A stretch of 64,000 nt of DNA from a virus (IMGVR_UViG_3300010163_000004:72935-136934); one strand, 5' to 3'; shown: positions 29,745-64,000, counted from the stretch's first letter. The notes: generated from the letters alone by a model not told the origin. Numbers and translations: made by a program.

Positions 29745-29815
29745 TTGGACTACCAGGATTCGAACCTAGACAAACAGAACCAAAATCTGTTGTGCTACCA
29801 TTACACCATAGTCCA
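29745..29815 (-). tRNA. tRNA-Gln(UUG). U1-A72, A73. D arm TGGTGTAATGGTAGCAC shared with the suppressor tRNA at 45713.
   Basis: Acceptor TGGACTA/TAGTCCA, anticodon arm ACAGA-TTTTGGT-TCTGT, T arm CTAGG-TTCGAAT-CCTGG. Confidence 0.8.
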
Positions 29816-42916: not shown

Positions 42917-43375
42917 TTAAGCGAAGTTAAGTGTCCACACGTTGACGTTTCTTGTTTCGCCATTGAATTCGGCTACTACAACTGTTTTCTTTTCAAACTT
43001 AATCTTCTTACCAGCAAGCTCTTCCTTGAAAGCTTCATCCATTGTAGCGTGCTTCTGAACAGCATCAACAACGGTACCGGTTGGGCGTACAAAATCACTA
43101 CCGTCAGCAGGACGAGCACCACGAGTCAAGCAGCCAATCCAGAAGTCCTTACCTTCCTCAGTAATAACTTTGGCAGCTTTGTTGGTTGTTCCATTTATAG
43201 GCATTAAGAAGATTTTAAAGTCTTTAGGAATCGTCACCGTTTCGCCTTCGTTGATATTATTCAACTCTAGCGCTCTAACCGCCCCTACACCTGCGTCTTT
43301 AAAGGATTTAAATACTTCACCCTGAGCAGCAGCTCTTTCTTCACTAATCTTTCTAGCATTTTTTTCAGTTGCCAT
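42917..43375 (-). CDS. small protein (152 aa), paralogue of 44402..44848. Function unknown.
   Basis: Shared MATE(K/R)N...TIPKD(F/Y)KI...(W/V)LTRGA(R/K)P.DG.DFVRP.GTV architecture. Confidence 0.6.
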   Translation of the reverse strand: MATEKNARKISEERAAAQGEVFKSFKDAGVGAVRALELNNINEGETVTIPKDFKIFLMPINGTTNKAAKVITEEGKDFWIGCLTRGARPADGSDFVRPTGTVVDAVQKHATMDEAFKEELAGKKIKFEKKTVVVAEFNGETRNVNVWTLNFA

Positions 43376-44004: not shown

Positions 44005-44394
44005 CTAATATCCTGCAATAATTTCCGATAATATTGTAATGTTGCAATTATTAAATTCATTCATTTTTATATTATCCATAGAATTAGAATAAAAGTCTGT
44101 ATATTTAACTTTTGGAACAAATCTAACTCTGCGAAAATGAATAGTAAAAATAGTATTTACTAATCTTGTTCTTTTTACCGCTCCAAGAAAATGTATTGTG
44201 TCTTCTCCTAAAACAAAATTACTATTAGAATTTAACACATTTAAAAGTTCTTGATGCTGTTTGGTAATAAGCAAATATTTTACTGTTATTCCTTCGCTTA
44301 TTCTTGATGTTAAATGTAATTCAATCTTCATATTTATTTCACTTAAGTTTAGTAAAATTGTACGTTTAATTATTTGCCAAACGTACAAAAGCAC
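44005..44394 (-). CDS. hypothetical protein (about 110-129 aa)
   Basis: ORF track. Confidence 0.45.
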   Translation of the reverse strand: MLLYVWQIIKRTILLNLSEINMKIELHLTSRISEGITVKYLLITKQHQELLNVLNSNSNFVLGEDTIHFLGAVKRTRLVNTIFTIHFRRVRFVPKVKYTDFYSNSMDNIKMNEFNNCNITILSEIIAGY

Positions 44395-44401: not shown

Positions 44402-44848
44402 TCATTTTACAAAATCAATGGTTGCTACCTTTGTAGTAAAGCTTTCGCCTTCAACTTTGGTAAATTCTTTTACTATCATAGGTTTCCCAGTAATGCCCTT
44501 AAATGCTTCATCATAAGAGGCATTAGGGTTTTTGTAAAATTTTTCTATTACCGTGCCCTTTGGTCTTACAAAATCCCCCCCATCTTTGGGTTTGGCTCCA
44601 CGTGTAAGCCATGAGACATAGAAAAATTTTCCTTCTTCTGTAACAACAAATTGGTATTTGTTGCTATTGAATTCGCGTTCGTAGATTTTGTAGTCCTTGG
44701 GAATAGTAAATTTCTCTCCTACTTCTATGTTTGCCAGTTCAGTAGGTGGCAAACTACTTTTCCCTGCTGTTGCAAAATCCTTGATTTGTGTACCCTGTGC
44801 CGCTGCGAGTGCTTCACCCGTCTCTCGGCGGTTTCTTTCTGTTGCCAT
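44402..44848 (-). CDS. small protein (148 aa), paralogue of 42917..43375
   Basis: See the paralogue entry above. Confidence 0.6.
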   Translation of the reverse strand: MATERNRRETGEALAAAQGTQIKDFATAGKSSLPPTELANIEVGEKFTIPKDYKIYEREFNSNKYQFVVTEEGKFFYVSWLTRGAKPKDGGDFVRPKGTVIEKFYKNPNASYDEAFKGITGKPMIVKEFTKVEGESFTTKVATIDFVK

Positions 44849-44920: not shown

Positions 44921-44933
44921 AACCCCAGGGGGG
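44921..44933. repeat. GC-rich motif AACCCCAGGGGGG, copy 1, in the divergent intergenic region
   Basis: Repeated at 45028-45039. Flanks the hairpin gtagtgg-tggaccg-ccactac. Confidence 0.5.
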
Positions 44934-45027: not shown

Positions 45028-45039
45028 ACCCCAGGGGGC
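45028..45039. repeat. GC-rich motif AACCCCAGGGGG, copy 2
   Basis: See 44921-44933. Confidence 0.5.
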
Positions 45040-45257
45040 TATTTATATAAAGTACCTGTACCGGCTTTCCCCTTAATATATAAAATATGTATAATATTTG
45101 AATTAGAATTTTTTAACTTTGCGTTTAACTTTTCGGAGGTTATTGTTGTATATAACTAAAAAGAAAACAATTATGATTACAGACTTAGAAACATTGTTAA
45201 ATTAGGACTAGTTTAAATAGCTAGTTGAGGCAATTAATACGAATCAAGAATATTATA

Positions 45258-45575
45258 TGTCTGGTAATGGGCTAACTATTAAGTCCGAATCTACCGACGA
45301 TTCTTTGTTCTTATTAATATCTTATGAAAGATAGAAGGAAGAAAGCTGCCTAGCTAATGAAGAGGTAGACCAATTCCAGAAATATTTAGAATCTCTAGAT
45401 GATAATTTATTTATAGATGTATGCGAATATCTAGGAGAACTTGAAGTTCGTAAAATACAAGGATGCTTAGAAAGCAGTAAGTTAGAAACAGTAAGAGCTG
45501 GTATTGCTAAATTCAAAATGGCACTGTCAGATATAGCTAAAAAGAGAATTGAACAACTGAAAGCTTATGTATGAA
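45258..45575 (+). CDS. hypothetical protein (105 aa) with one in-frame TAG
   Basis: Hand translation: MSGNGLTIKSESTDDSLFLLISYER[TAG]KEESCLANEE...KAYV*. Confidence 0.45.
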
Positions 45576-45712: not shown

Positions 45713-45784
45713 TGCCCTATGGTGTAATGGTCAGCACAGATGACTCTAAATCATTTAGTCTGGGTTCGAATCCTAGTAGGGCAA
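45713..45784 (+). tRNA. amber suppressor tRNA (anticodon CUA), derived from tRNA-Gln. Predicted to decode UAG as Gln.
   Basis: Cloverleaf: acceptor TGCCCTA/TAGGGCA (U1-A72), D arm GTGT-AATGGTCA-GCAC, anticodon arm GATGA-CTCTAAA-TCATT, variable TAGT, T arm CTGGG-TTCGAAT-CCTAG, A73. D arm, 8-9, T-loop and discriminator are shared with tRNA-Gln(UUG) at 29745-29815. Confidence 0.85.
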
Positions 45785-45803
45785 CGCCAAAAAATTAATA
45801 GTT

Positions 45804-46031
45804 ATGATAAAATTAAATGAGAATTATGTAGTAACTCCAACAGGGGCTAAAACTCTTATTATAGAAGAGGGAGACGATTGGAATAAAGTTTGTGAGAAGG
45901 TAGTTGGAAGTAAGTTTGATTATATCTTTGTACCTCAAGAATTTGAGAATCAAGCCTGCTATTTTCTTCCACAAATAACAGTTCAAGGAAAACAGATAGG
46001 TAAGATATGTACTTATAAGGTATTGAAATGA
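45804..46031 (+). CDS. hypothetical protein (75 aa)
   Basis: ORF track. Confidence 0.5.
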   Translation: MIKLNENYVVTPTGAKTLIIEEGDDWNKVCEKVVGSKFDYIFVPQEFENQACYFLPQITVQGKQIGKICTYKVLK

Positions 46032-46342
46032 AACAGTGTGCAGTTGTATTAAATGGAAATGATGTTGTCAAAGTCTCTAATTTAAAGAGAAAATATGACA
46101 AAATAATGAACAATTCTAATATGAAAATATTGGAGGAATGTGATAAGGAAATGTTAGATGAGAAGTACAACTATTGGAATAGAACATTAAATAGAAATAC
46201 AGAAGAGGAGAAAAAAGAGGAGGCTAAGATGCACCACTTTAAAAATCCGAAAACTGGATGCTCTATAACAAGTATCTATCCAGATTTGGAAGAATGTAAA
46301 TCATATATAAAAGACTGGATAGATTATGTTAAACTTGATTGA
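46028..46342 (+). CDS. hypothetical protein (104 aa)
   Basis: ORF track. Confidence 0.5.
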   Translation: MKQCAVVLNGNDVVKVSNLKRKYDKIMNNSNMKILEECDKEMLDEKYNYWNRTLNRNTEEEKKEEAKMHHFKNPKTGCSITSIYPDLEECKSYIKDWIDYVKLD

Positions 46343-46565
46343 AAAATATAATGAACTTACTAAATCGGAATTAGAGGAACTAGCAGAAATAACACTATTA
46401 GCTACGGAATCTTTAATTAATACTATTGTAGAAGAAGGAAAACAAAACGAACAATGGTTCTTAGATTATCTAGACAACTTAAATAAGCTAAGTGTATCGT
46501 ACTAATATATCAGTAGCCACAGATACTACGATAGAGAAAGAATTATTAACAACAGTTTAAAGGAT

Positions 46566-46760
46566 ATGATAAATTATAAGAAAACAATAACTAATATTCA
46601 TGAGCTGCTTCCAGAGCTAGACTTGGATGCATTATTTAAAATAATGGAGGCTATAGTAGAAGAAACCACTATAACTACAAGTTGGCCCAATAGCATCCGT
46701 TCGGATAAACCTTATTGGGAAGAACCAAACAGGATCACTTGTACGTATAATAGTAAATAA
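46566..46760 (+). CDS. hypothetical protein (64 aa)
   Basis: ORF track. Confidence 0.45.
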   Translation: MINYKKTITNIHELLPELDLDALFKIMEAIVEETTITTSWPNSIRSDKPYWEEPNRITCTYNSK

Positions 46761-46803: not shown

Positions 46804-47460
46804 GTTATGCGTTAACTTTTAGATATTTTATCCATGAAAACATCTTTCTCTATCCTTCTAGATACTATAAATTGTCTTCATTCATATAAGCTTCTTCTTC
46901 AAAGCTTACATCTCTGTAGCAATCATTTTGAGAATCTTTAAGTCTTAATAGCCGTATAATTAAATACTCTAATCCATACCAGATATAGAAAGATGGAATA
47001 GCTAACCATACCTATTCTAATCCAAATAATATAGATATAAGTATTGCAAACGCTATTGCACATTCCAAAATCTATACTGAATGGATATTCTCGTGATTCT
47101 TATCCTCACCAGTTAAATCCGACTTAGTAAATATTAATCCAAACAGATTAATTACTTTATAGCCTCCAAACGGTATAATATTATTTTTAATTATCATATT
47201 ATATAATACCAATCATTACGTTCTATAACTCCTTTCTCCTTGAGCTATTTATTATCTAAATGATAATCTCCATTTCTAAAATTTAATTCATTCTTAGTAT
47301 AGTCCCAATAAAAATACCCTTTCCAGCCGGGGAGTAATAAAGTACGACCAGTAGCCGCATAAAGAGTTGCTCTATTATAGTCCATATTACTTATTAAATA
47401 TAAACAGTAAATAAAGATATATCTTAAGTATAAATTCTTTAATTAATTTAACTACAGCCT

Positions 47461-49129
47461 TCATTGCTTTCTTGTTTTAATTAATCCATAATTTCCTTTC
47501 TTTAATCTAGTAGTAGGAATCCATCCATTATCTAGAATAGATCTATGCCCACTTGGTTTATGTATCTTAGCTCCATCTTCGTGTTTCCATTTAGCTGCGT
47601 TTCTAGCAAAGTTAGCACGCTTCTTCTGAAGAGGAGTAGCATTAGGATTGTTTAATACAGATTTAGCATGTTCCTATACAGACTATCCTGCAGCCTTAGC
47701 AGAGGCTGTAAATTTACCTCTATTTTTCTCTTTAATATGAATGCCTGACCCGTTTTTAAAAATTGGACATCCAAATATTTTCATTTTACCTCCACTTTTA
47801 TGTTTTTTAGAAAGTCCTATTGAAGAACTTCCATAATGTCCTTTGTGACCTATATTTTTTAGTATATTATTTTTAAACATACCTATTAATTCTACAGGCT
47901 ATGTTCCTTCCTATCCTACAAATAAATAATGCCTAAAGCCATTATCATCCTATTTAATTCTAGCCCTTTCAGCTCCAGCATTAGCCCTAACTTCATTTTC
48001 TATAGGAAATTCCATTTCAAAATCTTTATTGGCAATAGTTTTTATTTCATTCATATATTCATTATATATTTTCTTATATTCAGAGCTATTTCCAGATAAT
48101 TTAGCAGCTTCTAACCTTTTGATATATTTATCTTTATTTACTTTCTAGCTAGCCATTAAAAATATATCGTGATCAGAAGACCCTCCAGTGAGATAACCCC
48201 ATCCCTTATATGGTTTTGACGAAGTAACAAAAAAATTATTTCCAGGCTAAGTATAAAAATTAAAATCATTGTCTTTTATAAACTAACGTCTAGTAGACTA
48301 ACCTTTCTTTATAGGTCTTCTGACAATTCCTATGTAGCCCTCTGGACTTCCATTAGTATAGCCAAAGGCAGTACCAAAGTCATTTGATGTATATAAAGCA
48401 TTTTCAAAGTCTTCCAGTCCTGCTATATTAGTTCCAGTACTATTTGGTATTGTTGTAAGTGCCTTTCTAGCAGCTTCTTCTGAAGGCATATCAGCAGGTA
48501 TAAATCCAAGCTTTTTAGCTTCTGCTATATCTACTCCTCTTACAAAAGTATTATGTCTATTTACTACATGATCTGTAACTCTATCTAATTGTGCGTCATT
48601 AAATACTATAGTAGCTTTAGGTTTAATATCAGTATAATTATACTATTTCATAAATTTTTTTAAATGATTATAGTCTAATATATTACCTATTAAATTATTT
48701 GGAATATTATTCTTAATATAATTCCATCCCCTCCTAACTAAAGGAGCACTTAATCCTGGAACAAAGGCTAATCCTGCACTTAGGGCAGCCTATCCATAAT
48801 TTCCTAATCTTAACTAATTTCCTATATCTGCTATATCAGCAGCAGTATCTAATCCCGGAATAAATCCAGTAGCAGTAATTCCTAGGTCTATTATATCATC
48901 TGTAGAAATACCAGAACTTCTAGGCCTTTTCCCAACTATAGTTACTTCATCTAGAGTATTATTCGGGGGACTATAAGTTACCTACTTTCCGGCTAATTCG
49001 GCAGCTTTTGCTTTTCTATCCATCCTCTAACTATATAACCTCTATCTAGTTATATTGTCTCCTTTCCAAAAGGCTTCTAATTCTTCCTTCGAGGCTTTAT
49101 CAAAATCAGGTATTGGCATATTTGTTCAT
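47461..49129 (-). CDS. TAG-recoded gene (about 556 codons, at least 14 in-frame TAG, ends at TGA). Product unknown, basic C-terminus. Possibly a virion or internal protein.
   Basis: Hand translation of the minus strand. ORF-track fragments 47683..47880 and 48298..48489 are pieces of this single frame. Confidence 0.6.
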
Positions 49130-49251: not shown

Positions 49252-50166
49252 ATGGACAAAAGTAAAATTACAAAACAAAATGGGAACATAGCTTTCGAAG
49301 AGGAAGCTCATATTTATTATGATGTTACAAAGCCAGAACAGAAATTTATATCTGTAACGACTTTAATTCATTCTTTCACCCAACCCTTTGATAAAGAGTT
49401 CTGGTCAGCATACAAAAGTTTAGAAAAGCTTCTTAATAAAGATTCGTGGGCTATTGAGAAAAAGTCTTTACTAAATACTAAGAAATTTGATAGAACTTTA
49501 TTAGAATTACATGGGATTAGTGAAAATGATTTTAATAGGGAACAGCAAGCCATCTTAGATGCATGGGATATAGAGAACAGAAACTCTTGCGAGAGGGGAA
49601 CTAGAATACATGCAGATTTAGAAAACTCTTTTTATAAAAAGAAAAAGAACATTGATATTAGTAAGTTCGAAATAGGAGGCAAATTTGAATGCGAACAAGG
49701 TAGAACAACTCTAGACTTAGAGAATGGAATATATCCAGAATATCTGATTTCAAGAGTTTCGGATGATGGAAAGCTGAGATTAGCTGGTCAAATTGACTTG
49801 TTAGTTAAAAAAGGCAACAAGATTATCATAGGCGATTTTAAGACTAATAAGAAAATAGAAACTAAAAGCTTTTTCAATAGTAAAACTAAGTCATCTGTTA
49901 AGATGAAATATCCTCTAAACAATCTAGATGATGTTAACTATTATCATTACACACTTCAGCTTAGCACTTATGCTTGGATGGTTCAGAAGTATAACCCAGA
50001 ATTTGAGATAGAGGATCTGGTACTTATACATTTTGATCACAGCGATAACATGACAATATATCATGTTCCTTATCTAAAAGATGAAGTAATAAGAATGCTT
50101 TCTTTTTATAAGAAAGAATCTATATTGGCAGAAAATAAAAAGAAACGTCAACGTATTGAATATTAA
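49252..50166 (+). CDS. PD-(D/E)XK-family nuclease (Cas4, RecB or lambda-exonuclease-like fold)
   Basis: 304 aa. GQIDLLV ... IIGDFKTNKK fits the D...(D/E)xK motif. Confidence 0.5.
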   Translation: MDKSKITKQNGNIAFEEEAHIYYDVTKPEQKFISVTTLIHSFTQPFDKEFWSAYKSLEKLLNKDSWAIEKKSLLNTKKFDRTLLELHGISENDFNREQQAILDAWDIENRNSCERGTRIHADLENSFYKKKKNIDISKFEIGGKFECEQGRTTLDLENGIYPEYLISRVSDDGKLRLAGQIDLLVKKGNKIIIGDFKTNKKIETKSFFNSKTKSSVKMKYPLNNLDDVNYYHYTLQLSTYAWMVQKYNPEFEIEDLVLIHFDHSDNMTIYHVPYLKDEVIRMLSFYKKESILAENKKKRQRIEY

Positions 50167-50168
50167 TT

Positions 50169-50384
50169 ATGACACTAGAAGAAATAGAAGAAAGATGGAA
50201 AATATGCAGACGCTGTCCAATATGTAATCAAGAAGATGCAATATGTAATGGACAGTTGTATTTAAATCCAGAAAACAATGACATAAGCATTAGTCCAAAA
50301 GAAGGATATATAAAAGGATGTGGATGTCTTTTGGAATTAAAGATACCTAATGAGAAGAAGCATTGCCCTGCAAAGAAATGGTAA
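50169..50384 (+). CDS. small Cys-rich zinc-ribbon protein, tandem paralogue 1
   Basis: 71 aa. CRRCPICN...GCGCLLELK...HCPAKKW. Confidence 0.5.
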   Translation: MTLEEIEERWKICRRCPICNQEDAICNGQLYLNPENNDISISPKEGYIKGCGCLLELKIPNEKKHCPAKKW

Positions 50385-50611
50385 AGAAATGGATTAAAGC
50401 AATATTTACTAAACCTTTAGTAATATTAAAGAGCATATATTTCCATATATTTGGAATTAATCAAGATTTAGCAACCACAAGATTAAATATTTGTAGTGCT
50501 TGTCCTCATAAATTGCAGACTTCATTTGGAGAAGTATGTGAGGAATGTGGTTGTATACTAGAGAACAAAACTAGAATAGAAGATGAACATTGTGATTTAT
50601 GTAAATGGTAA
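50363..50611 (+). CDS. small Cys-rich zinc-ribbon protein, tandem paralogue 2
   Basis: 82 aa. CSACPH...CGCILENK...HCDLCKW. Confidence 0.5.
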   Translation: MPCKEMVKKWIKAIFTKPLVILKSIYFHIFGINQDLATTRLNICSACPHKLQTSFGEVCEECGCILENKTRIEDEHCDLCKW

Positions 50612-50619
50612 AATGAATT

Positions 50620-51222
50620 ATGGAAACTTTAAGAACAGAATTAAACAGTAATGAGAAACTAGCATTAGCTATGACTGGTATGGAAGGTACAGGAGAACAC
50701 TTTATCTTGAATGGAGAGGCTGCAGATAAAACTCTATTAAGAGAAAAACAGGAAAAATTCAATACAGCAGTAGATGAATTAGAAGATAAATTCTCTAAAC
50801 ATAATGCAGCTTTAGAATCTTACGCTAAATCATTATCTGAGGATATGAATGGTGTAGAAATTATGCCTATGTATGGGTATGCATTAATTAAACCTTTCGA
50901 ACAAAATCCGTTTCAAAAAATTAAAACTACTAAGAGTGGATTAATTACAGACTTAGGTGGATTTGCTCCAACATATAAATCTAATGAAACAGGGGAAATA
51001 GAAGAAGAACAGCAATTTATTAAAGTGGGTACTGTTATTGAGGTTGGACACAAGTGTGAGTTCTTAAAACCTGGAGATATAGTATTCTATACAATAGCTA
51101 GCGAGTGCATGGTTCCATTCTATAAGTTTGGATTTGTTGTAGTTAATGAGAACAGAATTATAGCTGTAGTTAACGAAAAGCTAACTGAAAGAAGAAACGA
51201 ATTGAAGTATGGAAACAATTGA
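50620..51222 (+). CDS. protein with a C-terminal GroES or T4 Gp31-like co-chaperonin fold (tentative)
   Basis: 200 aa. LIKPFE...KSGLITD...GTVIEVG...LKPGDIVFY resembles the GroES mobile loop and beta-barrel. Confidence 0.35.
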   Translation: METLRTELNSNEKLALAMTGMEGTGEHFILNGEAADKTLLREKQEKFNTAVDELEDKFSKHNAALESYAKSLSEDMNGVEIMPMYGYALIKPFEQNPFQKIKTTKSGLITDLGGFAPTYKSNETGEIEEEQQFIKVGTVIEVGHKCEFLKPGDIVFYTIASECMVPFYKFGFVVVNENRIIAVVNEKLTERRNELKYGNN

Positions 51223-51455
51223 TGAAAAAATTTACTTTAAGCCCGGAGATTGTGTTACTTTACGGTAGTGTAAAGTAATGCATTCTCCAGTTATGCTGGT
51301 TCTAAGAAGAGAAGCAGCTTTATTTAAAGATAACCAAGGATTACGAGGATTAAGATGTAGATGGTTTACTGATACTGGACTTATGTAGGAAGCAGTATTT
51401 AATACTAAGGACCTTTAGCTTGTTAGAGAGAATAAATAAAAAATATAGAAAAGCA

Positions 51456-52757
51456 ATGGATAAGATATAGTTTGACCCTGAATTGATGCGTAATATTAAA
51501 ATTATTTACGGAAATGTAGACTTAGATGACAAAACCTTAAGATAGCTATATTAGACTTGGACAACTAATCCTGATATTATTAGAAGAACTGTACAATAGA
51601 AAATGCCCAAGACATAGAAAACATACTTTGATGCTCCAGAAATGCCATCATTACCTACAAGATTAGAATCTCTTCCTACTACTGAGATAGCTCAAGATGA
51701 TTTAAGAGGTGTTAAAGATTTTAAAACAGCTTTTAGAGCTGCTAGAGAGAGGGGATTAAAATAGTTTATGTGGGGGAATTCTACATATACTACAGACTTA
51801 GAATAGCCTTCAGATAAACCTAAACAATCTTCTGCCGTTTAGATTCCAAAATCAGATACTTAGATTAGTATAAAGGCTCCAGATCTAACTGCCACAACAA
51901 AAGGAACTACTTGGGGTAGAGGAGTATAGACTATCACAGGAAGCAGTTAGCCAGCTAGTAAATAGTCTTCAAATAAACCTAAAGCAAATCCTGTATAGGT
52001 TACTACCAGTAGGTACACTATGGGAAATACAGTACAAGGAAGAGATTTTGGAATTGGTAGAGGAATCGGCAAAGGTTTTATGGGCTTCCTAAACTGGTTA
52101 AATAAAGGAGCTGCTAGTAATTAGTATAGTAAAAGTAAGTAGGTCAACCCACTTAGTTATTATCAACAAGGAGGAACAATGAATAATCAACAAGAATTAC
52201 AAAAAGCATTTATAGCATATCTAATACAGGATGCTACTTAGCAAGGAGTACAAATTCAATCTGAACAAGATTTATAGGCTTATGCTGAACAATTAGGTGA
52301 AGACGGTATTAAAGCTAAGTATCAGGAATTTATGCAAAAAATGCAAGGAGGAGTAATGGCTAGGCTTGGAGCTAAGCTTGAGTATTATAAGAAGCTAAAA
52401 GGAGTATGTCCAGAAGGAGAAGAGCTTGTATATTTTAAGCAAGGCGGTAGAATCTGTAAAGCTTGCCAGAAAGCACAAAAAGGAACTAAAGTTACTAAGA
52501 AAGCTAATGAAGTTGATAAATTTAAGGCTGGAAGAGCTTAGTATAAGAAAGATATGAAATCTGCTAGGGACGAAGCCTCGAGAGATTCTATATCAATCAA
52601 TAAATATAATGATTAGGAAACTATGGCCAATAAAGGACATAAGGGTAATTTCCAGAAAGGGAAATGGGTTCCTGATAGAAAACAATATGCTAAGAAAGAC
52701 GCTTGTGGTTCAAAAATGAAAGTCAATAAGTGCGGTTCCAAAATGAAAAAGAAATAA
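51456..52757 (+). CDS. TAG-recoded late gene (433 codons, about 17 in-frame TAG, ends at TAA TAA). Product unknown.
   Basis: One frame is open except for TAG from the upstream TAA (about 51350) to 52757. The ORF-track piece 52332..52541 is its 3' segment. Confidence 0.6.
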
Positions 52758-52794
52758 TAAGATTATCTAATATATATGATAATGATTAATGATT

Positions 52795-53355
52795 ATGAAT
52801 GTATTTAGCTATAACACTCTAACTAAATAGCTAGAAATAAATGAACCAGAGATATTGCTAGTTAAGGAATTTAAGGCTCTAATCTAGAGGGATAAATCTG
52901 TAGAAAAGGATAGAGCTACTAGAGAACTATCTTACATTTATTTAGCTATAGACTGGAAAAGTCCGTACAGTTAGTATTCGGAACATGAACGACATGACGA
53001 AGCTATTAGTGATTCTGGATTGACAGAATCAGAATTTAATGACCCTATATTTAGAGCAGCTTGTAGGAAATACAGAGCGTTACAAGATTCAAATAAATCG
53101 ATAAAATTACTAGAAGCAGCTAAAAGAGCCGCAGACTAGTTTATTGATTATTTCGAAACTATTGTAGATTTAAATGAGCGTGATAATAACGGCAAACCAG
53201 TATTCCAAGCTGAAAAAGTAATGAAGGAAATGGCTACCCTTCACAAAGTTCATGAAGAACTAATAACACTAGAAGACTAGGTTAAGAAAGAACTTACTGA
53301 ACAATCTACTGTTAGAGCCGGAGCTGTGGATGGTTTTGACCCAGGAGACTTTTAA
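52795..53355 (+). CDS. TAG-recoded gene (186 codons) immediately upstream of the large terminase. Candidate small terminase or packaging-associated protein (position-based guess).
   Basis: Hand translation MNVFSYNTLTK[TAG]LEINEPEILL...DGFDPGDF*. Confidence 0.45.
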
Positions 53356-53357
53356 TT

Positions 53358-55724
53358 ATGCCAAGAAAAAAGAAGATATTACCTGAAGAAATATAGAATA
53401 TTGTAGATTAGGTAAGAGAAAAAGAATAGAAAGAAGATGCTAAAGAAGCTAGAGAATTAGTATAGAAAATAAGAGAGGAAAGGGTCAGAAATTCTGACTA
53501 TTGGGATGTTAAAATAGGAGATAAAATAGAAGTATTTGACCCTACCTTATCTTATGAAATAACCGGATATAGACCTATTGATGAAACTCATGGATTGGAT
53601 TTTAACCCAGATTGGTTTACCGAGACTAGGGAAGTATATAAACGAACTGGTCAATATTGTCCCTACCTTAGAGATAGTAAGCGGTATAACGAATTTTGGA
53701 AAGAGCAATATAGAAGATGTAAGTATGGAATGACAGTTAATGAATACACTATTACTGGAGATAATTACTTCTTCTTAAATTTCTATTAGTTACCTACTAT
53801 TGACTAGTAGAAAGCCTCTGGTGAAGGTACTGATAATGACTTCCCAATATTCTTTGCATCACATTATATGTTCTTTCATTATCTACAGATGGCTAGAGTG
53901 CTACATAAGCACGCGGCTTTAATGAAAGCTCGTTCTATTGGATTCTCTGAAATAAATGCCTCTCTTTCTGCTCGTATGTACTCTGTTATTAGAAGAAGTA
54001 GGGTTATGATTACTTGCTTTAACGACACCTTCCTTAAGGGTACCTTTAGTAAGTTTGACAATGCTCTTACATTCTTAAATACTTGTACTGGAGGAGGATT
54101 TTTTAAATTGCGACTTATTGACCAGGATTTGAGAAAGAAATCAGGTAAACAAATCAAAATAAATGGTTAGTTTGAAGACGTAGGATTTAAATCTGAGGTT
54201 GTAGCAATTAACGGAGCTAAACCATCTAACATTCGTGGAGACCGTGTAGATTTATTAATATATGATGAAGCTGGTTCCTGGCCTGGACTTGATACCGCTG
54301 TGGTACAAGGTCAAGAACTTTGTGAAGTTCAAGGTATGCCTCGTGGAACAATGTTGTTTGGAGGTACTGGCGGTGATATGGGTGCTCCTCTAGAGGGCTT
54401 AAAAAAGATTTACTATAATCCAAGAGCATATAAGATTCTTCCATTTAGACATAATTGGACTTAGGATGGGACTACTATAGAGAGTGGATTCTTTATTCCA
54501 TACTTTATACAATCTTTGAATCCAGAATTTATGGACCACAGAGGAGTATGTAATACTGTGGAGTATAAGAAATTCTTATAGGAGGAGCGAGATAATCTGT
54601 TAGCTGTACCAGAAGACTACCTAAAGAAATGTGCTGAACGTTGTTGGAATGCAGAAGAAGCATTTAATCTAGAAGGTGTTAATAAGTTTAATAAAATCTT
54701 AGTTGCCGAATAGATAGCTAATATAAGACTTAAACAAATTGGCCCAAAACCTGAATGTGGTTATATTGATTATTTTTACAAAAATAATAAACATACTTAG
54801 GATAACATTGATGGTTTTAAATGGATTCCTAATAGCAATGGTAAAGTAAAAATTCTAGAGCATCCAATATGGTCTGACTTATATAAAGAACAAATGGAAA
54901 AGCTTAGATAGGAGGCAGAAGATAATGGCTAGGATTTTGAAGTTCCAGTTTATAAAGAAATGCGAGACTTATATGTAGCAGGTATAGACGGTATTGATAT
55001 TGGAGCGAATTAGACTTCTAAGGAAACCAGAGACCCGTCTGATTTCTGCATAACGATTAAGAAACGTGCGTTTGGTATGAATGACCCTCAGTATGTTGCT
55101 ATGTACAAGGATAGACCTGGAGACATCAGAGAAGCCTATAAAATAGCTATGTGTTTAGCTCGCTATTATAATTGTAAAATAAATATAGAAGCTACTCGTA
55201 TGGGTATGGTTACTTGGGCTAGAGAAAAAGGATGCCTTAACTATTTTATGAAGCGCCCAAGAGCTACTCTAACTGACGTTAGAAATGGAACTACTAAATA
55301 GTATGGAACTCCTGCTACAAAAACTATAATCGAATAGCATACTGATTTAACAGCCGCCTTTATAGAAGACTATTGCCATACTATATGGTTCGAAGAAATG
55401 CTAGAATAGTTCACTGCATATAATGATGAAAATAAGGGTAAGTATGATATTGTAGCCGCTGTAGGTATGACTGAGTTAGCAGACCAAGAGCTATCAGGAA
55501 GACAGCCCGTACTTGTGGAGAAAGAAGTTGAATAGTTCCAAGATTTTGGTTACTATTACGACGAGAGAGGAATTAAAAGATTTGGAGTTATTCCAACTAA
55601 GAAAACTCCTGAACTTAATATGCAAAGAAACGAATATGATGACCCATACAGAGTTGAAACAAGTGATCCTAGAATATATGAGGGACTTGTACAAAATGGA
55701 GTATATAGGCGGACTAGATATTGA
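53358..55724 (+). CDS. terL: terminase large subunit (788 codons, about 19 in-frame TAG, ends at TGA), TAG-recoded
   Basis: ATPase Walker B VDLLIYDEAGSWPG. C-terminal RuvC-like nuclease motifs DLYVAGIDGIDIGAN...DIVAAVGMTE. ORF-track pieces 53595.., 53868.. and 55077.. are all in this frame. Confidence 0.8.
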
Positions 55725-55974
55725 GAGTTTAGACCCGGTTGGGTATAAAGTCTCTTTTAACTTTGATAGGTCAGAAATGCCATTAGTAATAATAGCAGAT
55801 TTACCAGACGAAGAATTTCTGCCATTTATTAAGGAAGAATTAAGAAGTAGGAAGTTACAAAGAGTTAAGTATTATAACGCTACTAAACTTCCTCCAGAAC
55901 AACATAATTTATGTTATGAAAGAGAAGGAATTAATAGACAAGACAAACGAGGCTATTGCGGAACTTGTATATGA
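55636..55974 (+). CDS. small protein in the +1 frame overlapping the terminase 3' end. Standard-code ORF 55513..55974; an internal Met start at 55636 is more plausible.
   Basis: ORF track. Overlaps terL by about 90-210 nt depending on start. Confidence 0.35.
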   Translation: MMTHTELKQVILEYMRDLYKMEYIGGLDIESLDPVGYKVSFNFDRSEMPLVIIADLPDEEFLPFIKEELRSRKLQRVKYYNATKLPPEQHNLCYEREGINRQDKRGYCGTCI

Positions 55975-58087
55975 TAAGTATGAGTTACAGAAAGCTTATA
56001 ATTATTATAATGGTAAAAGGGATCCTGAATAGTTCCGTTATCTGGAAGAAAACTTCGGAATAGGCAGCCCCACTTCGGTAGAGTTTACACCTTTATTAAA
56101 GAAACACGTAGATGCTCTAGTTGGAGAATATTTAGGAACTCCCATACTTCCGAAAATTTCTTGCAAAGATTCAGATACTATTAGTAATATAACAAGAGAG
56201 AAGCAGCTAGAAATAACCAAGGGAATAGTAAAGTTTTTGAAAGACCATTTAAGTAATTCAATTCTTAAGTTTATTGATGGCAAGGATATTACTGATAAAG
56301 CTGTAAAGACTTAGTTAGATAAAATTATATAGGATATTGACCAATCCTTTATTTCTCAATATGAAGTTGCAGCTTAGAATATAGTGCATTATATTATGCA
56401 ATCTAGAGAAACCGATTTAATTACTAAGTTACGTTAGTTACTAACAGACTTATTAATTACTGGTTATACATTCTTTAGAGTGAAATCATCAGCTTCTGGA
56501 ACTAATATTGAAATAGAGGTATTAAATCCGCTTAATACATTTGTTGATAGAAATCCAGAATCTCCATATGTAAGAAATTCATATAGAGTTGTAGTAAGAA
56601 AGTGGATGAGTAAGAGTTAGATTTTAGCTAAATATGGCAAAGAAATATCTAGAGAAGATTTAAGAAGACTAAAGGATGAATGGCGGGCTGATGATTCTGC
56701 TGCTATTTATAGGAGAGTATATGGAGATACTTGTACAGTCGTAAACGAAGATTAGAATCATGAAACCATTCCTGGTTATCCAGACAATGAATATAGTGCT
56801 CATAGGTTCTAGTTAATCCCAGTCTATGATGTTGAATGGATTGAGACAGATGATGACTTTGTAATGTAGAGATACAATACTATCAGAATAGGAGAAGAGA
56901 TATATATTCTTAGAGGATTAGACAAGACTGTTATGAGATCTAAAGATAATCCCAACTTCTGTTCTTTATCGGTAAATGGAGTATATTTCTTAAATCGCTC
57001 TTAGTAGCCTTATTCTCTTATATTAAAATGTGCACATCTGTAGGATAGATACGACTTATTAAACTATTATAGAGATAACCTAATAGCTAATAGTGGTACT
57101 GCTGGAGTTATTATGGATATGTCTCTATTACCTATTAACTTAGGAGTTAAATGGCCAGAACGGGTACAAAAATGGTTAGCCTATAAAAAAGGTGGTATCA
57201 TGTGGATAGACTCAAGCCAAGAAGGTAGAAATGACGGACAGCAAGCTCCAAACTAGATATATAACGGATTTGATGATACCTTAAAAGCATAGGCTGTATA
57301 GGCTATCGAATTAGCTATTCAATCAGTAGAACAAACTACATCATCAATAACTGGAGTATTTAGGGAACGACTTAACGGTATAGAAACTAGAGATGCAGTT
57401 ACTAATATTAAGTAGGGAGTAGCTAACTCGTATATAGTAACTAAGCACTACTTCTAGCAGATGGATTTAATAACCTGTGAGATACTACTAGATAGCCTTA
57501 ATTAGGCTAAAGTTACTTATAAGAAAGGATTAACTGGAACTATTATACTCGGGGATAAATATCAACAGATATTTACAGCACTTCCTGAGTATTTTACTGT
57601 TACTGACTACGATATTCATATTACTGCTAGTTCAGAAGTGATGGAAGATCTATAGACTATAAAAGCAATCATTCCAGAGTTCGTAAAAAGTCAACAGATG
57701 GATCCAGATATTATTTTTGAGGCTCTTACATCTAAGAGTCTGACAGACCTTAAATATAAGGTTAAGAAAGCTGTTCAAGTTCGCAAAGAGGAAAATAACC
57801 AGCTTCAGCAACTACAAGAGAAATTAGAAGAAACTTCTCAATAGGCTCAGTAGTTGTAGCAAGAATTATAGAAGGCTCAGCAAAAGATTGAAAGCTTAGA
57901 TGAATAGAGGCTAGGATTAGAATAGTAGAAGATGCAGTTAGAATATAAAGTTAACTGGCTTAAAGCTTAGTCTGATTCTACTTATAAAGATAGACAAATG
58001 GATATTGAAGAAAAAAGAACTGAAATAGAGTTGGCTTAGCTTCATGATGGAAATCCATATAATGATAAAATAAGACAAATACATTAA
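55916..58087 (+). CDS. portal protein (723 codons, about 25 in-frame TAG), TAG-recoded
   Basis: Position immediately after terL. Size and composition fit a portal. Call is by synteny and size rather than motif. Confidence 0.55.
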
Positions 58088-58088
58088 T

Positions 58089-58820
58089 ATGGCAACTGGA
58101 ACAATTGTATACAATAAAGATTAGCAATAGATTTATCCTATCTCTGATGGGACAGTGATTATAAGTAATGCTTCCGGTTCTAAATCAAATGTAGAAGATG
58201 ACTTAAAAAAATTATTTAAGTAGGTATCAGATTTATCTGGCTCAAGTGAAGCAGTTAATAGTATTATTATTAAAATACATTATCTCCCTGCTAATACCGC
58301 CGACGAATCTGAAATAAGACTATCAAATAAGTAGTGGTCTGATACTTTTGAACTTCCAACAGAAGAGAATCCATATATATGGAAAAGAACTAAATTTACT
58401 TTTTAGGGGGCTGATGAATCATCGGGAACTACTATCTATGAGATAGTAGCAAGTGATGTTTCTACTATTATATAGACTATATATACTAGAACTGAGGGAA
58501 TAACGCCAGTTATAGAATATAAATAGAAAACAGATGAAGAAGGAAATCTACTATATATAGATGCTGAGGGAAAAGAGACAACAGCTGTTACTCCGAATAA
58601 AGCGTATGATTATGATTATTATTGGAACGGAAAACCGTCTGGCAAATTAAATAGTTTACCACCAACTCCAGAAAGTTAGTCATATACTTGGACAGACTAT
58701 CCTCAAGATATTAGTTTATCATTTAATTCAGTCTTTATGTCTAGACGTATAAGACAAGAAGGTAAATGGAAACCTTTTTCTACTCCTGCTCAATATGGCT
58801 AGTGGCCTACTGAGTCTTAA
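58089..58820 (+). CDS. TAG-recoded structural-module protein (243 codons)
   Basis: Hand translation MATGTIVYNKD[TAG]Q[TAG]IYPISDG...QYG[TAG]WPTES*. Confidence 0.5.
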
Positions 58821-58830
58821 TTATTACAAT

Positions 58831-59562
58831 ATGGAATTTAGTATTGATATACATACCAAAATTAATGGGGAAATACTGATAGAAGATTTCTCAAAAGAAT
58901 ATGGCTAGTATATTGATGAAGATGTAGAGGTAGTAACTTCTTACGACTCCTATAAGTATAGTGAGAGTGCTACCTTAAATACTATCATCAAGGTTAGTAT
59001 AAGTGATGCTACTCTGATAGATGTTTTACTTAATGACCATACAGAAGACCTAGACTCGTGTATGTTTAAGGTTAAAGATGATGGCTATTACGTAGTAGAC
59101 CATATCATTATTCCTAATATGAAATGGTACGAAAATTCATCCGACGAGTATAAAGAATACTATGAGACTATCTATGTTACTGATGGAGAAAAATTATATA
59201 AAGAAGTAGAAGGTAAACTAGAAGAGTGTACAGTTAAAGAAGTTCTTGAACGAAATATAGAAGGAACTACTATAAAAAAATGTAAGGTAGATGTTTTCTT
59301 TACGGGAAACTTGTAGTAGTGTTACATTAATTATTGTAAGAAACTCTTTGATGCTTTACTAAATAAGTGTCTAACTAGAGATTAGGAGGCAGATATATTT
59401 GCCAGAGATTTCATATGGATGACTCTTAACATTATAGATTATTTAATATGCTTTAAACAATTCATGGAGGCTGAGAGATTACTAGCGATGTTCCGTACCT
59501 GTGGAGGATTCTGTGATAATCACCACCATGGACATAAACGTATAGGTTGTGGATGCTCTTAA
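58831..59562 (+). CDS. TAG-recoded structural-module protein (243 codons). Contains two consecutive TAG codons at 59314-59319; could alternatively be two genes.
   Basis: ORF-track piece 59062..59316 is in frame. C-terminal part is Cys/His-rich. Confidence 0.45.
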
Positions 59563-59717
59563 GAGAAAGGCTATTAAAAGGTATGAGGATTTTCTAAGAA
59601 AACTCAAAAAGGGATATAAACCAGATTATCAAGATATTCTGAATCTAATTTGTTTTATTAACCTACCTGTAAGACTAGATAATCACGAATTTATTAAATA
59701 GCAATTATTAAACTAGA

Positions 59718-61292
59718 ATGATACAGTCTATTTACACTTCGGTAAGTAACGCAGATATAGTGCCTTGTGGTAAAAAGGGTAAGCCTATAAAATGTGAGCC
59801 TATACCTCTCTTAAGAAATAACTATTTAGGAGAATATAGGACAGAACTAGAAAAAGCTAAAGTAAGAAAGAATTTAGGTATTGCTGATGAGTAGAGTCTA
59901 TTGTGGGGAAACATTAGTGGAACCATAGAACTGCAAAAAGACCTAGTATAGTATATAGAACAAAAATGGACCTATACTAGTGACGTTGCAGAAGGCATTA
60001 ATACTGTGAAAGATGCTCTAGACTATGCCCTATACTTTATTAGTGAATATGAATCTAATACAGAAGAAATAGAAGAACTAAAAGTCGATATAAGCAATAT
60101 TAGAACTTCTATATCTGTATTGAAGGAGGATTTACAACGAGAAATTGATACTAATAGAAAAGGAATTAATAATCTATCTGAAGAAATAGTAAAAATCAAT
60201 GAAGCTATAGTTGAGTTGAATAATGCTATTGAGAATATAGATGTTGATAAAAACATTCTTAATTGGGTTAAGAATAGTCTTCAAAATTCTAAAACTATAG
60301 AAATAAAGGAAGATAATTCTTTAGAGGTAATTTTGTCTACTTAGGAAGATAATGCTATTCATTTAATAGAATAGGAGATTGGAGAGGAAACCTCTTCTAT
60401 TATTCTTCCAGGTATCTATGTTAAAAATCTCGAGCCTGCTCTAGAAGAAACAAAAAAAGAAGTATAGAAAACTTAGGAAGCACAACAAGAGACAAATGCC
60501 AAAGTAGAAGCTAATACTGAAAACATCACTAATATACAAACTAATTTAGAAACTATAGCTACTTATTAGACTGAACTCCCAGATGATACTATTTCAACGG
60601 TAATTGAAGGAACTACAGTAGAGAAACTTAAAGGCAAACCCTTTAATGAAATTATTGATACTTTACTATTTCCAACAGTAGTTAGAGATTTGGTATATCC
60701 ATGGCTTTATTATAGTTTTACTTCTCAAATAGTGGAAGTAGGAACTGCTTTATTAACTCCTACACTTACATTTATAAAGAATGATGCTGGAGAAGAAACT
60801 GACAGACAAGAAACTATTACTTATAACAGCTCTCCTGTAGAGTCTGATACATATAATTCTATTGGTACTTATACTTACTATGGTGTCGTGAGCTATGCTG
60901 CTGGAGAATATTTGATAAATAATAAAGGAGAAGTTACAGATAAGAGAATAGAAGCTGGTTCTATTTCTGCTACCGCTTAGGTAGTAGCCACATATCCTTG
61001 GTATTCTGGTAATACTGATGGTATGATTAAATAGGAGTTAGTTCCTTTTGGACAATTGTCTGGAACTATCACATTTTCACTAAGTGGTAAGGCTATTATA
61101 AAATTGCCAGGAAGTAATACATAGTTAAATTCATTTACCGTAGATGGAGGACTTGGATATTTAAATGTAGACCTAAGTGGTTGGGAAACGTCTACCGAGT
61201 AGATAAATGGATTTACTTACAAGGTATGGACTAAGAAAGACACTTATTCCTCAGCATTGCCACATCAAATTAACTTTATTCTATCACAATAA
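59718..61292 (+). CDS. TAG-recoded tail or fibre-like protein (524 codons), coiled-coil N-terminal half
   Basis: ORF-track pieces 60006..60344 and 60690..60980 are in frame. Ends at TAATG, overlapping the next start. Confidence 0.55.
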
Positions 61293-63130
61293 TGGCATTT
61301 AAATATACAGGTGATGCTACCTTAGGTGTCGCTTTAACCGTAGAAACTCCGAAGCCTCTCGATAATAGAACAGTCGTTAATAACTTAGACGAACTTTATT
61401 CTATTCCAGAGAAGTATGCTTATCAAGGTATGACCGTTGCTAACATAGACAACGGAAATATTTATATGCTGATTGATAAGTCTAAGATTAAATACAAGGA
61501 AGGATGGAAAGCATCCTATGAATCTATCTAGATAATCACCTGTACAGAGGCTGAATATAAAGAATGGTCTGAGAATACTACAGATGATTTTAGGCCCATA
61601 GATGAAAGTAAAACATATCTTCATGCTGAGACATATTATTATATATATGAGGATAGCCTAGACGACAACTAGTTTTACCTATCCGCAGAGTGGGGAAAAA
61701 AGATAGAAGAGCAATTAAAATAGAAGGCCCTTAATACTACTGTAGTATAGATTAGAACAGACTTAGATAACACTATTGCCAGCCTATCAGATTATGCTAC
61801 ACTGGAAGAATTAACTACTAATTATGTCTCTAATGATTCTTTAGCTCTATCCCTGACTAAGTATTATACTAAGAAAGAAACAGACGATATTTTCGTTACT
61901 AAAGAAAGCCTTAGAGGGGAGGGAATGGAAGGAGATGATTTTGTCTTCGTTACAAAGAAAGAATATGAGGAAGATTAGTAGGCTATCCAAGATGAATTAG
62001 ATAAAACTCTTAAAGTAGACGGAGATGGTTCTTTAGAAAGCATCACTGTTGGATAGATAAAATCTCCTGTAGTGGAGGGAGGGAAATAGCTAGTAGTAGA
62101 CGTTAGGTCTGAAGGATTATTTATAGGTGAAGATCAGATTGCTACTGAATCAGATATTCCGAATTTAGTAACATTAACTGAAGAAGAGTATCTAAAGTTA
62201 GTAGAGGAAGGGACTATAGAGCCTGATACATATTACTATGTATATGACGTCACAAATGATGCAAAGGTTTATATTACTAAAGAATATTTGGATTAGAATT
62301 ATCATACTACTAATCAATATCAGTCCTGGGTTTCTACAAATTATTACTCTAAGAAGTAGATTGATGAAATAGTTCAAGGTTTGCAAAAACTCGGAAACTA
62401 CGTTACTACAGAAGATATTAAGGCTTATTATACTATTTAGCAGGTTGATGACAAATTTCTTACTAAAGAAAATGCTTAGTCTACTTATGCTACTCAATAG
62501 TCATTATCTGATTTATCAGATTAGATAGCTGAAGATTACGTAACAAAAGAAAGTTTAAGGGGAGACTCTCCTGAAACTGGAGATGATGATTTCATATTTG
62601 TTACCTAGAAAAAATATCAGGATGATTAGGTTGCTGCGGCTAAAGAATTTAGCACTGAGCTTTTGAAATCTACATCAGTAGAAACTTCTGATATTACTAT
62701 TTAGAAAATTGGGGAAAAAGAAGTACAATAGGGAATAACTGGAGAACTTTCTGAGAAAACAGAAACTAAGCAAGTTATTGAGAGTTCTGTTAAACTTACC
62801 ACAGAAGATAACAGACTGTTTGCAGGAGGTAAGCAAGTTGCTATTACTGAAGAAGTACCAAAACTTGTATGCTTACCACAAGCTGATTATGACGACTTAG
62901 TTGAGAATAGTAAGACTGAAGAAGATACTTATTATTGCACCTATGGAGAAAAAGATTTACAGGATACTGGGTATGTTAGAAGTGAATATCTTATAGAAAG
63001 ATACTACACCAAAGCTGAGGTAGAAGAACTGATTAGCTAGGCCGTAGCCAAATTATAGAAAAAGATAGACGCTTTATAGCCAGGTTCTAGTGTAGAGGTA
63101 GATGGAGAAAATGAACAATTAATATTTTAA
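61292..63130 (+). CDS. TAG-recoded tail-fibre-like protein (612 codons) with internal repeats (YVTKESLRG...DDF(V/I)FVTKKEY..DD twice)
   Basis: ORF-track piece 61292..61531 is the N-terminus. Repeat units are seen directly. Confidence 0.55.
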
Positions 63131-63135
63131 ACAAT

Positions 63136-63350
63136 ATGGGAACAATTTATATTGAAGGACAGTTTAAGAGTTCTGCCAAACCAGTAAAAGTTGTTGGAGG
63201 AAGTGTAGGAGGAGGCTCTGGAGTAGACCAGGAAGTTCTCAAGAACTATGCTACTAAAGCAGAATTATAGAAGGCTGTTGAGGACCTAACTGCTTCCATA
63301 GAGGGAATAGATCACGATGTAGTTGATGAAACTTTAATAATACAATGATA
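63136..63350 (+). CDS. small TAG-recoded protein (71 codons, Gly-rich)
   Basis: Hand translation MGTIYIEGQFKSSAKPVKVVGGSVGGGSGVDQE... Confidence 0.4.
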
Positions 63351-64000
63351 TGGCAGCAATCAAATCTATAAAGGTTGGAGAAACCACATATGATTTAAAA
63401 GCTACTTACGATGGTGCTGGAAATGTTATAGATACGACATATGCCAAGGCTAATGCAATTCCAACTAAAATTTCTTAGTTACAGAATGATAGTGGATATT
63501 TGACTAAGCATTAGGATATTAGTGAATTAGCTACAAAGGGTGAGCTTGAAGGCAAAGTAGATAAGGAGTTAGGAAAAGGACTCTCTGAAGCCAATTATAC
63601 TGAAACTGAGAAGAAAAAGTTAAGTACTATAGCTAGTAATGCTAATAATTATGTACATCCAACTACTTCTGGAAATAAACATATTCCATCTGGAGGAACT
63701 TCCGGACAGATGTTAGTTTTCTCAGCAGATGGCACTGCTAAGTGGGCAGATTCAAGTTCTAAGCTAGAAGAACAGTTTACAGTGCTAAATGAGGCTTGGG
63801 CAGAATTATAGAAAGCTCAACAAAAACTTGACAAGTAGGTTACTGAGTTAAATAGTAATATGGATTTATATTCATATGGAGTAGAATGGGATGCTACAGT
63901 AGCATCTCCAGAACTTACTAGAATAGGTAATCCTTTACTACATAAATCTCTTCCTATTCAATCAGCGTATAGAGGTTGTGTAGCAAACAATGACGTAGTA
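63350..64000 (+). CDS. TAG-recoded tail-fibre-like protein, 5' part (continues beyond window)
   Basis: Hand translation MAAIKSIKVGETTYDLKATYDGAGNVIDTTYAKANAIPTKIS[TAG]LQNDSGYLTKH[TAG]DISELATKG...HIPSGGTSGQMLVFSADGTAKWADSS. Confidence 0.5.

Follow-up and report, generated by a model that had tools for sequence, protein, structure and literature searches.

TAG is read as a sense codon

In a 64,000-nucleotide stretch of viral DNA (IMGVR_UViG_3300010163_000004:72935-136934; hereafter the window), predicted to come from a large crAss-like (Crassvirales-type) gut phage, a subset of genes uses TAG as a sense codon. Very probably, TAG is translated there as glutamine by a phage-encoded suppressor tRNA with a CUA anticodon, itself derived from a tRNA-Gln; this applies to the virion-assembly genes and a few others, and the early genes avoid TAG.

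We recomputed the open reading frames (ORFs) of the whole window under four stop-codon sets, and measured coding density in ORFs of at least 60 aa. Between 51.3 and 64 kb, only 16% of the DNA is coding under the standard code, as compared to 93% when TAG is sense, with the ORFs in single file on the plus strand; the initial annotation of this DNA had rightly noted that standard-code calling shatters these genes. It had also described a plus-strand frame that stays open for kilobases, and this is borne out by the codon counts: ten contiguous plus-strand ORFs between 51.2 and 64 kb contain 123 in-frame TAG codons and no in-frame TAA or TGA, and the nine that extend from 51456 to the window end have 120 TAG, 0 TAA, and 0 TGA across 3982 codons. 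In the two off-frames of these same nine genes, TAA and TGA together make up ~7.8% of codons, and TAG contributes only 29% of stop triplets. By simple arithmetic from the off-frame counts, a 788-codon frame free of TAA and TGA has a chance probability of ~e^-64, and it is as improbable that all 120 in-frame stops should be TAG. The counts and the off-frame rates together exclude chance, pseudogenization, and sequencing error by very large margins.

TAG accounts for 40-83% of the glutamine codons in each recoded gene. The base immediately 3' of TAG is distributed as it is after CAA and CAG (chi-square p = 0.89, n = 151), so TAG acts as an ordinary codon and not through context-dependent read-through; a special read-through context 3' of these 151 TAG codons was sought and not found.

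The recoded genes include the large terminase and portal

The large terminase gene (TerL; 53358-55724, plus strand) has 788 codons and 19 in-frame TAG, both as initially annotated; the portal gene (55916-58087, plus strand) has the expected 723 codons, although its in-frame TAG codons number 28 rather than about 25. TerL matches phrog_6681 (E 3.8e-62) in one unbroken alignment over residues 92-713 that runs through many TAG positions, which is the homology continuity that the initial annotation had named as a test. A tblastn search of GenBank phages with TerL returned 121 records, mainly crAss-like phages, Azobacteroides phage ProJPt-Bp1, and Flavobacterium FpV phages, at 23-28% identity and E-values down to 2e-43, together with two unannotated human-faecal contigs, MT835470 and MT835539, at 43-44%. 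A large protein collection contains one TerL relative at 98% identity, from a cluster of 2365 sequences, and many at 73-79% identity that lie on contigs of 180-195 kb. The portal matches phrog_6547 (E 6.2e-47) and scores 23.9 bits against Pfam P22_portal, under the 26.1-bit cutoff; it is 78% identical to its homologue in relative L001 and 68% identical to that in relative L003, which have 33 and 38 TAG codons, respectively. These similarities support the assignment of 53358-55724 and 55916-58087 as the large terminase and portal genes of a crAss-like phage, as had been proposed.

TerL varies in organization elsewhere. One relative's TerL (P0003) is a 1131-aa protein with intein/LAGLIDADG Pfam domains, whereas the window TerL is uninterrupted, and the TerL match in MT835539.1 (L005) is in three pieces across 4.4 kb, which suggests an intron or intein. 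The TerL of MT835470.1 (L004), 43% identical to that of the window, has no TAG, showing that a standard-code relative exists at moderate distance. A 112-aa TAG-free ORF (55636-55974, plus strand) overlaps the 3' end of TerL and the 5' end of the portal gene; it is a candidate gene only, and an 87-aa ORF is called at the corresponding place in relatives L002 and L003.

TAG corresponds to glutamine

At 10 of the 19 TAG columns in TerL, at least 117 of 120 database homologues have glutamine. The relatives' genes are untranslatable under the standard code, so the glutamines in their gene calls may themselves be TAG codons and this evidence is partly circular; for that reason we dropped database proteins as the sole evidence for the amino acid and used codon-level alignment of the relatives' DNA instead. 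Thirteen genes were compared with L001 and L003, using only columns with conserved neighbours.

In TerL, window TAG codons stand opposite CAA or CAG in the relatives at several columns, and the relatives' TAG codons stand opposite CAA or CAG in the window at others, which answers the alignment check that the initial annotation had called for. Across the filtered columns in which a window TAG is paired with a sense codon in a relative, 40 of 93 are glutamine codons (CAA 28, CAG 12), followed by GAA (11), with the remainder scattered; in the reverse direction, the relatives' TAG codons are paired with CAA 27 times and with CAG 15 times. Opposite TAG, Q is commonest (43%), ahead of E and K, a profile that parallels those of CAA (59% Q) and CAG (53% Q). 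In a likelihood test built on empirical substitution profiles for each of the 20 amino acids, glutamine scored -209, glutamate was next best at -288, and all others were lower, placing glutamine ahead by 78 log-likelihood units. The interchange of TAG with CAA and CAG thus supports glutamine, the residue first suggested, as the predicted meaning of TAG in the recoded genes.

A phage-encoded suppressor tRNA

The mechanistic core of the recoding is a suppressor tRNA gene that is absent from the initial annotation. ARAGORN reports 22 tRNA genes in the window, 21 of them on the minus strand, and the only one on the plus strand (45713-45785) has the anticodon CUA (cta; its label of 'Pyl' is by convention only). 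It folds into a regular cloverleaf and scores 66.3 bits on the Rfam tRNA model, the third best in the window. Its closest paralogue among the 21 other tRNAs is tRNA-Gln(UUG) (29744-29815, minus strand), with which it has 75% identity, a common U1-A72 pair, and nearly identical D and T arms. From this kinship and its anticodon, we predict that the suppressor is derived from tRNA-Gln and decodes UAG. In relatives L001, L002, and L003, a tRNA-CUA gene occupies the equivalent place ahead of the late block, on the TerL strand, and in phage cr52_1 a tRNA(CUA) gene, annotated as tRNA-Gln in its record, lies directly upstream of TerL.

L001 has a second tRNA(CUA) gene (671-742 of that contig, minus strand), on the opposite strand from the positional match of the window suppressor. 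The 21 minus-strand tRNA genes in the window span 15799-42135 and include some unusual calls, among them a 'Tyr' with ATA (26622-26704), an Ile with TAT (29330-29404), and two Tyr(GTA), as well as several that are over-long at 82-93 nt (Asn, Met, Leu-TAG).

Recoded and TAG-free genes form a mosaic

Recoding had been thought to be confined to plus-strand genes of a late module starting at about 51.4 kb, but neither limit holds. Recoded genes start at 45.17 kb, three at 46.8-49.1 kb are on the minus strand, and a further one lies within the early block; recoding is thus not one block on one strand, but a mosaic of gene clusters from 45.17 kb on together with a homing endonuclease gene in the early block.

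The homing endonuclease gene (25512-26147, minus strand) is free-standing, of the GIY-YIG/NUMOD1 type, and lies between a tRNA-Asn and a tRNA-Met gene. It has four in-frame TAG codons, and its product matches Pfam GIY-YIG with 35.1 bits against a 22.6-bit cutoff. Fourteen related copies on IMG/VR contigs (most of 140-193 kb) carry one to six TAG codons each, and 13 of the 14 are without in-frame TAA or TGA; more distant GIY-YIG copies have no TAG. The pattern argues that these copies are a functional gene family written in the alternative code. The segB gene of phage T4 likewise encodes a free-standing GIY-YIG homing endonuclease within a phage tRNA gene cluster; the window copy differs in being written in the alternative code, with its four TAG codons.

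The first plus-strand ORF (45173-45574; 133 aa) lies upstream of the suppressor gene, with one short ORF between them, and has four TAG codons; its homologue has four in L001 and none in L003, and it has no Pfam match. Just 3' of the suppressor are four small TAG-free plus-strand ORFs (45804-46760), followed by the three recoded minus-strand genes: a hydrophobic 130-aa ORF with four TAG codons and no Pfam match (46805-47197), a 63-aa ORF with one TAG (47194-47385), and a 552-aa ORF with 15 TAG (47461-49119). Homologues of the last have nine TAG codons in L001 and 15 in L003. Pfam and PHROGs gave no match for the 552-aa product, whose similarity to other proteins is limited to single modules: the central domain has 59% identity to protein P0121, and the last 66 residues, a C-terminal module, have 86% identity to the N-terminus of peptidoglycan-hydrolase/tail-lysozyme-domain proteins, the proteins sharing this module carrying PF18013, PF01832, PF01464, and PF00959. 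The module identity suggests that the 552-aa protein is probably associated with the virion or the cell wall.

Four TAG-free plus-strand ORFs follow as an island (49252-51222), coding for a 304-aa PD-(D/E)XK nuclease, two small Cys-rich products, and a 200-aa product. Homologues of the 304-aa and 200-aa ORFs in L001 and L003, at 65-83% identity, are likewise without TAG.

Dense recoding truly begins with a 76-aa ORF with three TAG codons (51209-51439, plus strand), and L001 has a called gene of 73 aa in the corresponding place. Between it and TerL are a 433-aa ORF with 19 TAG and no Pfam or PHROGs match (51456-52757, plus strand) and a 188-aa ORF with five TAG (52789-53355, plus strand). The latter matches phrog_16390 (E 1e-10), a family with no assigned function, and is 82% and 69% identical to its homologues in L001 and L003, respectively; judging by its position directly before TerL, it could be the small terminase gene. 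Downstream of the portal gene, all on the plus strand, are ORFs of 243 aa with nine TAG (58089-58820), 255 aa with four (58795-59562), 524 aa with 11 (59718-61292), and 612 aa with 21 (61292-63130), and a tail-fibre-like ORF of more than 216 aa with four TAG (63350-64000) that is cut by the window end. PHROGs matches of the tail type are found in the last three ORFs, including a weak match of the 524-aa product to phrog_788 (E 1.7e-4) and matches of the tail-fibre-like product to phrog_18608 and phrog_10588.

The divergent intergenic region between the minus- and plus-strand blocks contains two copies of the palindrome-containing 11-mer ACCCCAGGGGG (44922-44932 and 45028-45038), 106 nt apart; it occurs nowhere else in the window, in which 0.14 occurrences are expected, and the pair may be a regulatory or origin element. 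The GC skew changes sign in the same area, at 44-50 kb. A scan of 44-53.5 kb for sigma-70 promoters and terminators gave 51 promoter-like sites as compared to 45 expected, with a consensus that is unfit for Bacteroidota-type promoters.

The early block is code neutral, with a few true TAG stops

The replication and auxiliary genes occupy 722-44848 on the minus strand, interspersed with the 21 minus-strand tRNA genes. The GIY-YIG gene is the only one with in-frame TAG, so the initial annotation, which had described these genes as entirely free of TAG, stands for the three large ORFs that it named (517 aa, 8970-10523; 650 aa, 31023-32975; 671 aa, 17015-19030) and fails for the endonuclease. Coding density in this block (0.7-44.9 kb) scarcely depends on the code, rising only from 77% under standard coding to 79% when TAG is sense. 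Pfam matches in the block include DnaB-like and SNF2/ResIII helicases (DnaB_C at 722-1816 and ResIII/Helicase_C at 2676-3950, both minus strand), NAMPT, an OmpA-like protein, RNase H, SPFH, and a glucosaminidase.

Five of the 64 early ORFs terminate in TAG, which therefore has a double meaning in the genome. One of the five is 21126-21821 (minus strand), whose stop at 21126-21128 has no back-up stop nearby: read-through would add 152 residues, to 20667, as an in-frame fusion of 384 aa (20667-21821). Homologues in six IMG/VR relatives have the same end point, with TAA or TGA, or with TAG and then TAA or TGA after one to five codons, and the homologues in other contigs end without the 152-codon fusion. 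The common end point indicates that the TAG at 21126 is the natural end of the protein. The RNase H gene (12704-13165, minus strand) also ends in TAG, with a TAA five codons on, and its RNase_H Pfam domain (86 bits) has ended by residue 139 of the 153-aa product, well before the TAG; a third early ORF (44005-44331, minus strand) ends in the tandem stop TAG TAA. Three of the five TAG-ended early genes have a TAA or TGA within six codons as compared to 35% of TAA/TGA-ended controls, which is not a significant excess. The early block is best described as code neutral with a few true TAG stops.

Several other early genes stand out. The 517-aa nicotinamide phosphoribosyltransferase (NAMPT_N and NAPRTase domains) is encoded beside a weakly PRTase-like ORF, and the pair (7768-10523, minus strand) looks like an NAD-salvage auxiliary module. 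The OmpA-like protein (11653-12669, minus strand) combines an outer-membrane beta-barrel domain with a hydrophobic N-terminus that resembles a signal sequence. The 650-aa SPFH/Band 7 protein (31023-32975, minus strand) has a very long repetitive tail rich in Ala, Glu, Lys, and Gln, and its gene is the G+C peak of the window (0.41). Two paralogous ORFs of ~150 aa without Pfam matches (42917-43375 and 44402-44848) lie at the start of the minus-strand block; both products begin MATE(K/R)N and have the common stretch 'WLTRGA.P.DG.DFVRP.GTV'.

How the recoding might work, and what it might be for

On the account best supported here, which has been published before (10.1101/2021.08.26.457843; PMC7886860), the phage tRNA(CUA) is presumably charged by the host glutaminyl-tRNA machinery and would compete with host release factor 1 at UAG. 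Genes that would be expressed in the naive cell, for replication, nucleotide and NAD metabolism, and the tRNA gene block, are free of internal TAG and with few exceptions stop at TAA or TGA; their products would be unchanged by the arrival of the suppressor. TAG-containing genes would yield only truncated fragments until the suppressor has built up sufficiently, at which point these genes, mostly for virion proteins, would become translatable.

Several observations weigh against this temporal reading. The labels 'early' and 'late' rest on gene function and strand only, and the proposal in the initial annotation that code use is tied to expression class is not supported as worded, the link being drawn from those same two properties. 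The suppressor gene lies on the plus strand 140 nt downstream of the TAG-containing ORF 45173-45574, and so may be made together with the genes that need it and not before them. A recoded homing endonuclease gene sits within the early block, and TAG-free ORFs are interspersed with recoded genes. The only clear cell-wall hydrolase gene, the candidate lysin 19669-20163 (minus strand; glucosaminidase domain, PF01832, 64.7 bits), is TAG-free, so a role in lysis timing is not visible in the window. Finally, no release factor and no GlnRS or other aminoacyl-tRNA synthetase was found among the 30 larger early ORFs scanned, in a window that is about one-third of the genome.

A serious rival concerns the purpose of the pattern and not its mechanism: recoding would be real but not a selected timing or lysis switch. 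Early genes, being translated before the phage tRNA exists, would simply be constrained to avoid TAG, and later genes would drift from CAA or CAG to TAG by codon capture; or the suppressor's main benefit would be damage to host proteins, an anti-host read-through idea put forward previously (PMC7886860). The high share of TAG among glutamine codons in every recoded gene, without special context, fits this rival, as do the free interchange of TAG with CAA and CAG among close relatives, the recoding of a selfish homing endonuclease, the unrecoded candidate lysin, and the occurrence of some Zeta phages with a CUA suppressor but no recoding (PMC12386605). On the other hand, the TAG-free state of the 49.25-51.22 kb island genes is conserved in relatives at 65-83% identity, which suggests selection on which genes may carry TAG, and recoding has been found enriched in lysis and structural genes (Borges et al., 10.1101/2021.08.26.457843). 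We hold an unselected origin to be a real but somewhat doubtful possibility.

In an extension of the temporal reading that we consider unlikely, the code switch would be a second lock on top of transcription, set for each gene cluster separately. This is prompted by the position of the suppressor as the sole late-strand tRNA gene, at the head of the plus-strand block, and by the maintenance of TAG-free islands. Early-block homing endonucleases, having adopted TAG, would then be made only late, and 21126-21821, which ends in TAG without a back-up stop, would yield a C-terminally extended isoform late. If these features were selected, one codon would define at least three translational classes.

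The remaining alternatives challenge the recoding itself or its history. Recombination between a standard-code replication module and a code-15 structural module could also produce two coding styles, and in its favor are the code switches at short phylogenetic distances in crAss-like phages (PMC7886860) and the absence of TAG from the 43%-identical TerL of MT835470. We reject such a mosaic ancestry as very improbable, however, because G+C content is uniform (0.30-0.41) without a step at the boundary, relatives at 73-79% TerL identity share the mosaic, with the TAG-free island and the placement of the suppressor, and TAG-containing and TAG-free genes are interleaved at 45-51 kb.

We also reject, as having very little left to recommend it, the reading of TAG as a different residue (pyrrolysine, Glu, Lys, Tyr, Trp, Leu, or Ser). 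It could draw on the ARAGORN 'Pyl' label, a convention for any CUA tRNA, and on the presence of Glu in relatives at ~15% of aligned TAG columns; but glutamine leads glutamate by the 78 log-likelihood units given above and the rest by more, TAG substitutes as CAA and CAG do, the tRNA(CUA) is a close paralogue of tRNA-Gln(UUG), peptides with Q are known from related phages (PMC9523058), and no pyrrolysine synthesis or PylRS genes are among the window ORFs scanned. That the in-frame TAGs reflect damage, whether in pseudogenes or a defective phage, or errors of sequencing or assembly, as the shattering of the region by standard-code calling might suggest, is effectively refuted by the codon alignments with relatives and by the stop-triplet counts (120/120 in-frame stops are TAG though TAG is 29% of those off-frame), with many independent assemblies keeping full-length frames with TAG at partly different positions and a matching suppressor tRNA present, and its probability is negligible.

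Comparison with known recoded phages

The assignment of the source to the crAss-like phages is drawn from similarity searches, in which the phrog_6681 and tblastn matches place TerL in the crAss-like clade, and from the DnaB-family and SNF2-family helicases in the replication block. The features of code 15 are found together, with one stop type reassigned, TAG aligned with Gln, a CUA tRNA, and recoding of part of the genome. The late region has no megablast match among GenBank phages, and the only close record found, MT836666.1, an unannotated 25.6-kb fragment from human faeces, matches 615-21924 at 92.8% identity over 65% of the first 25 kb of the window.

Every element of the recoding is already described in the literature, so the finding is already known, and the partial TAG-to-Gln recoding seen here adds no new principle, having been published since 2021 with peptide proof in 2022. 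Partial-genome TAG-to-Gln recoding of late genes with suppressor tRNAs has been reported in crAss-like phages, including the 145-192 kb Zeta group, as have recoded intein and intron ORFs and changes of code across short phylogenetic distances (PMC7886860). A temporal model and the statistical enrichment of recoding in lysis and structural genes were set out by Borges et al. (10.1101/2021.08.26.457843), block-wise dual coding was described together with a tool for calling it (10.1101/2022.06.29.495998), and the reading of TAG as Q has been validated by metaproteomics and peptides in crAss-like phages (PMC9523058). In Zeta phages, TAG stops followed by TAA have been described, and some members with a CUA suppressor are not recoded at all (PMC12386605). 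Gene calls from public pipelines already have Q for TAG in this lineage. The parallel with crAss-like and Lak phages drawn in the initial annotation is sound for partial-genome recoding, but the lytic-switch idea that came with it is not shown in the window.

The window is consistent with membership of the Zeta group, judging by its gene content and that of its relatives. The closest GenBank fragments likewise come from the human gut, and the relatives' contigs, at 180-195 kb, are at the top of the Zeta range of 145-192 kb or just above it. G+C content is 34.5% overall, without a step at the block boundary, as compared to 34.5-35.1% in the amber-suppressing Zeta clade. Zeta phages and the window alike are rich in tRNA genes (22 in the window), among them one for a CUA suppressor; in both, TAG-to-Gln recoding is limited to the structural block, the replication block encodes DnaB and SNF2 helicases, and TAG stops with a second stop after them occur (PMC12386605); many homing endonucleases are common to both, represented in the window by the GIY-YIG gene, and inteins are found in TerL of relatives. 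The signature structural genes of crAss-like phages (MCP, IHF, and two conserved uncharacterised genes) and their giant RNAP-like proteins would be encoded past the window end; L001, L002, and L003 have ORFs of more than 2100 aa 3' of the tail genes. The best annotated TerL matches are to Suoliviridae (delta group), at 25-28% identity.

Those ~100-kb Suoliviridae also have in-frame TAG in TerL (11 in cr52_1 and seven in cr115_1), and in the TAG-recoded ~100-kb crAss-like phages, which include the crAss lineage studied by Borges et al. and Peters et al., as in the window, structural genes are recoded and replication genes are not. Their genomes are about half the size, and their TerL proteins are only 25-28% identical to that of the window; the suppressor gene adjoins TerL in cr52_1, whereas in the window it is ~5.4 kb upstream of the dense recoded block. 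In Lak megaphages and other recoded gut clades, the early genes can likewise be read in the standard code, the structural and lysis genes are recoded, and suppressor tRNAs are present (10.1101/2021.08.26.457843), although these are unrelated lineages and no Lak phage is among the TerL matches of the window. In some alternatively coded clades, a code-change module supplies RF2 or tRNA synthetases as well; no such gene was found among the window ORFs scanned.

In practical terms, standard-code calling ruins ~19 kb of the window, including the terminase and portal genes, and the region needs gene calling with TAG as Gln or with a multi-code caller such as Mgcod. To the published pattern, the present analysis adds details: the recoded genes are mapped exactly, a family of homing endonucleases proves to be recoded, a TAG-free island is conserved, and a few early genes give evidence of genuine TAG stops.

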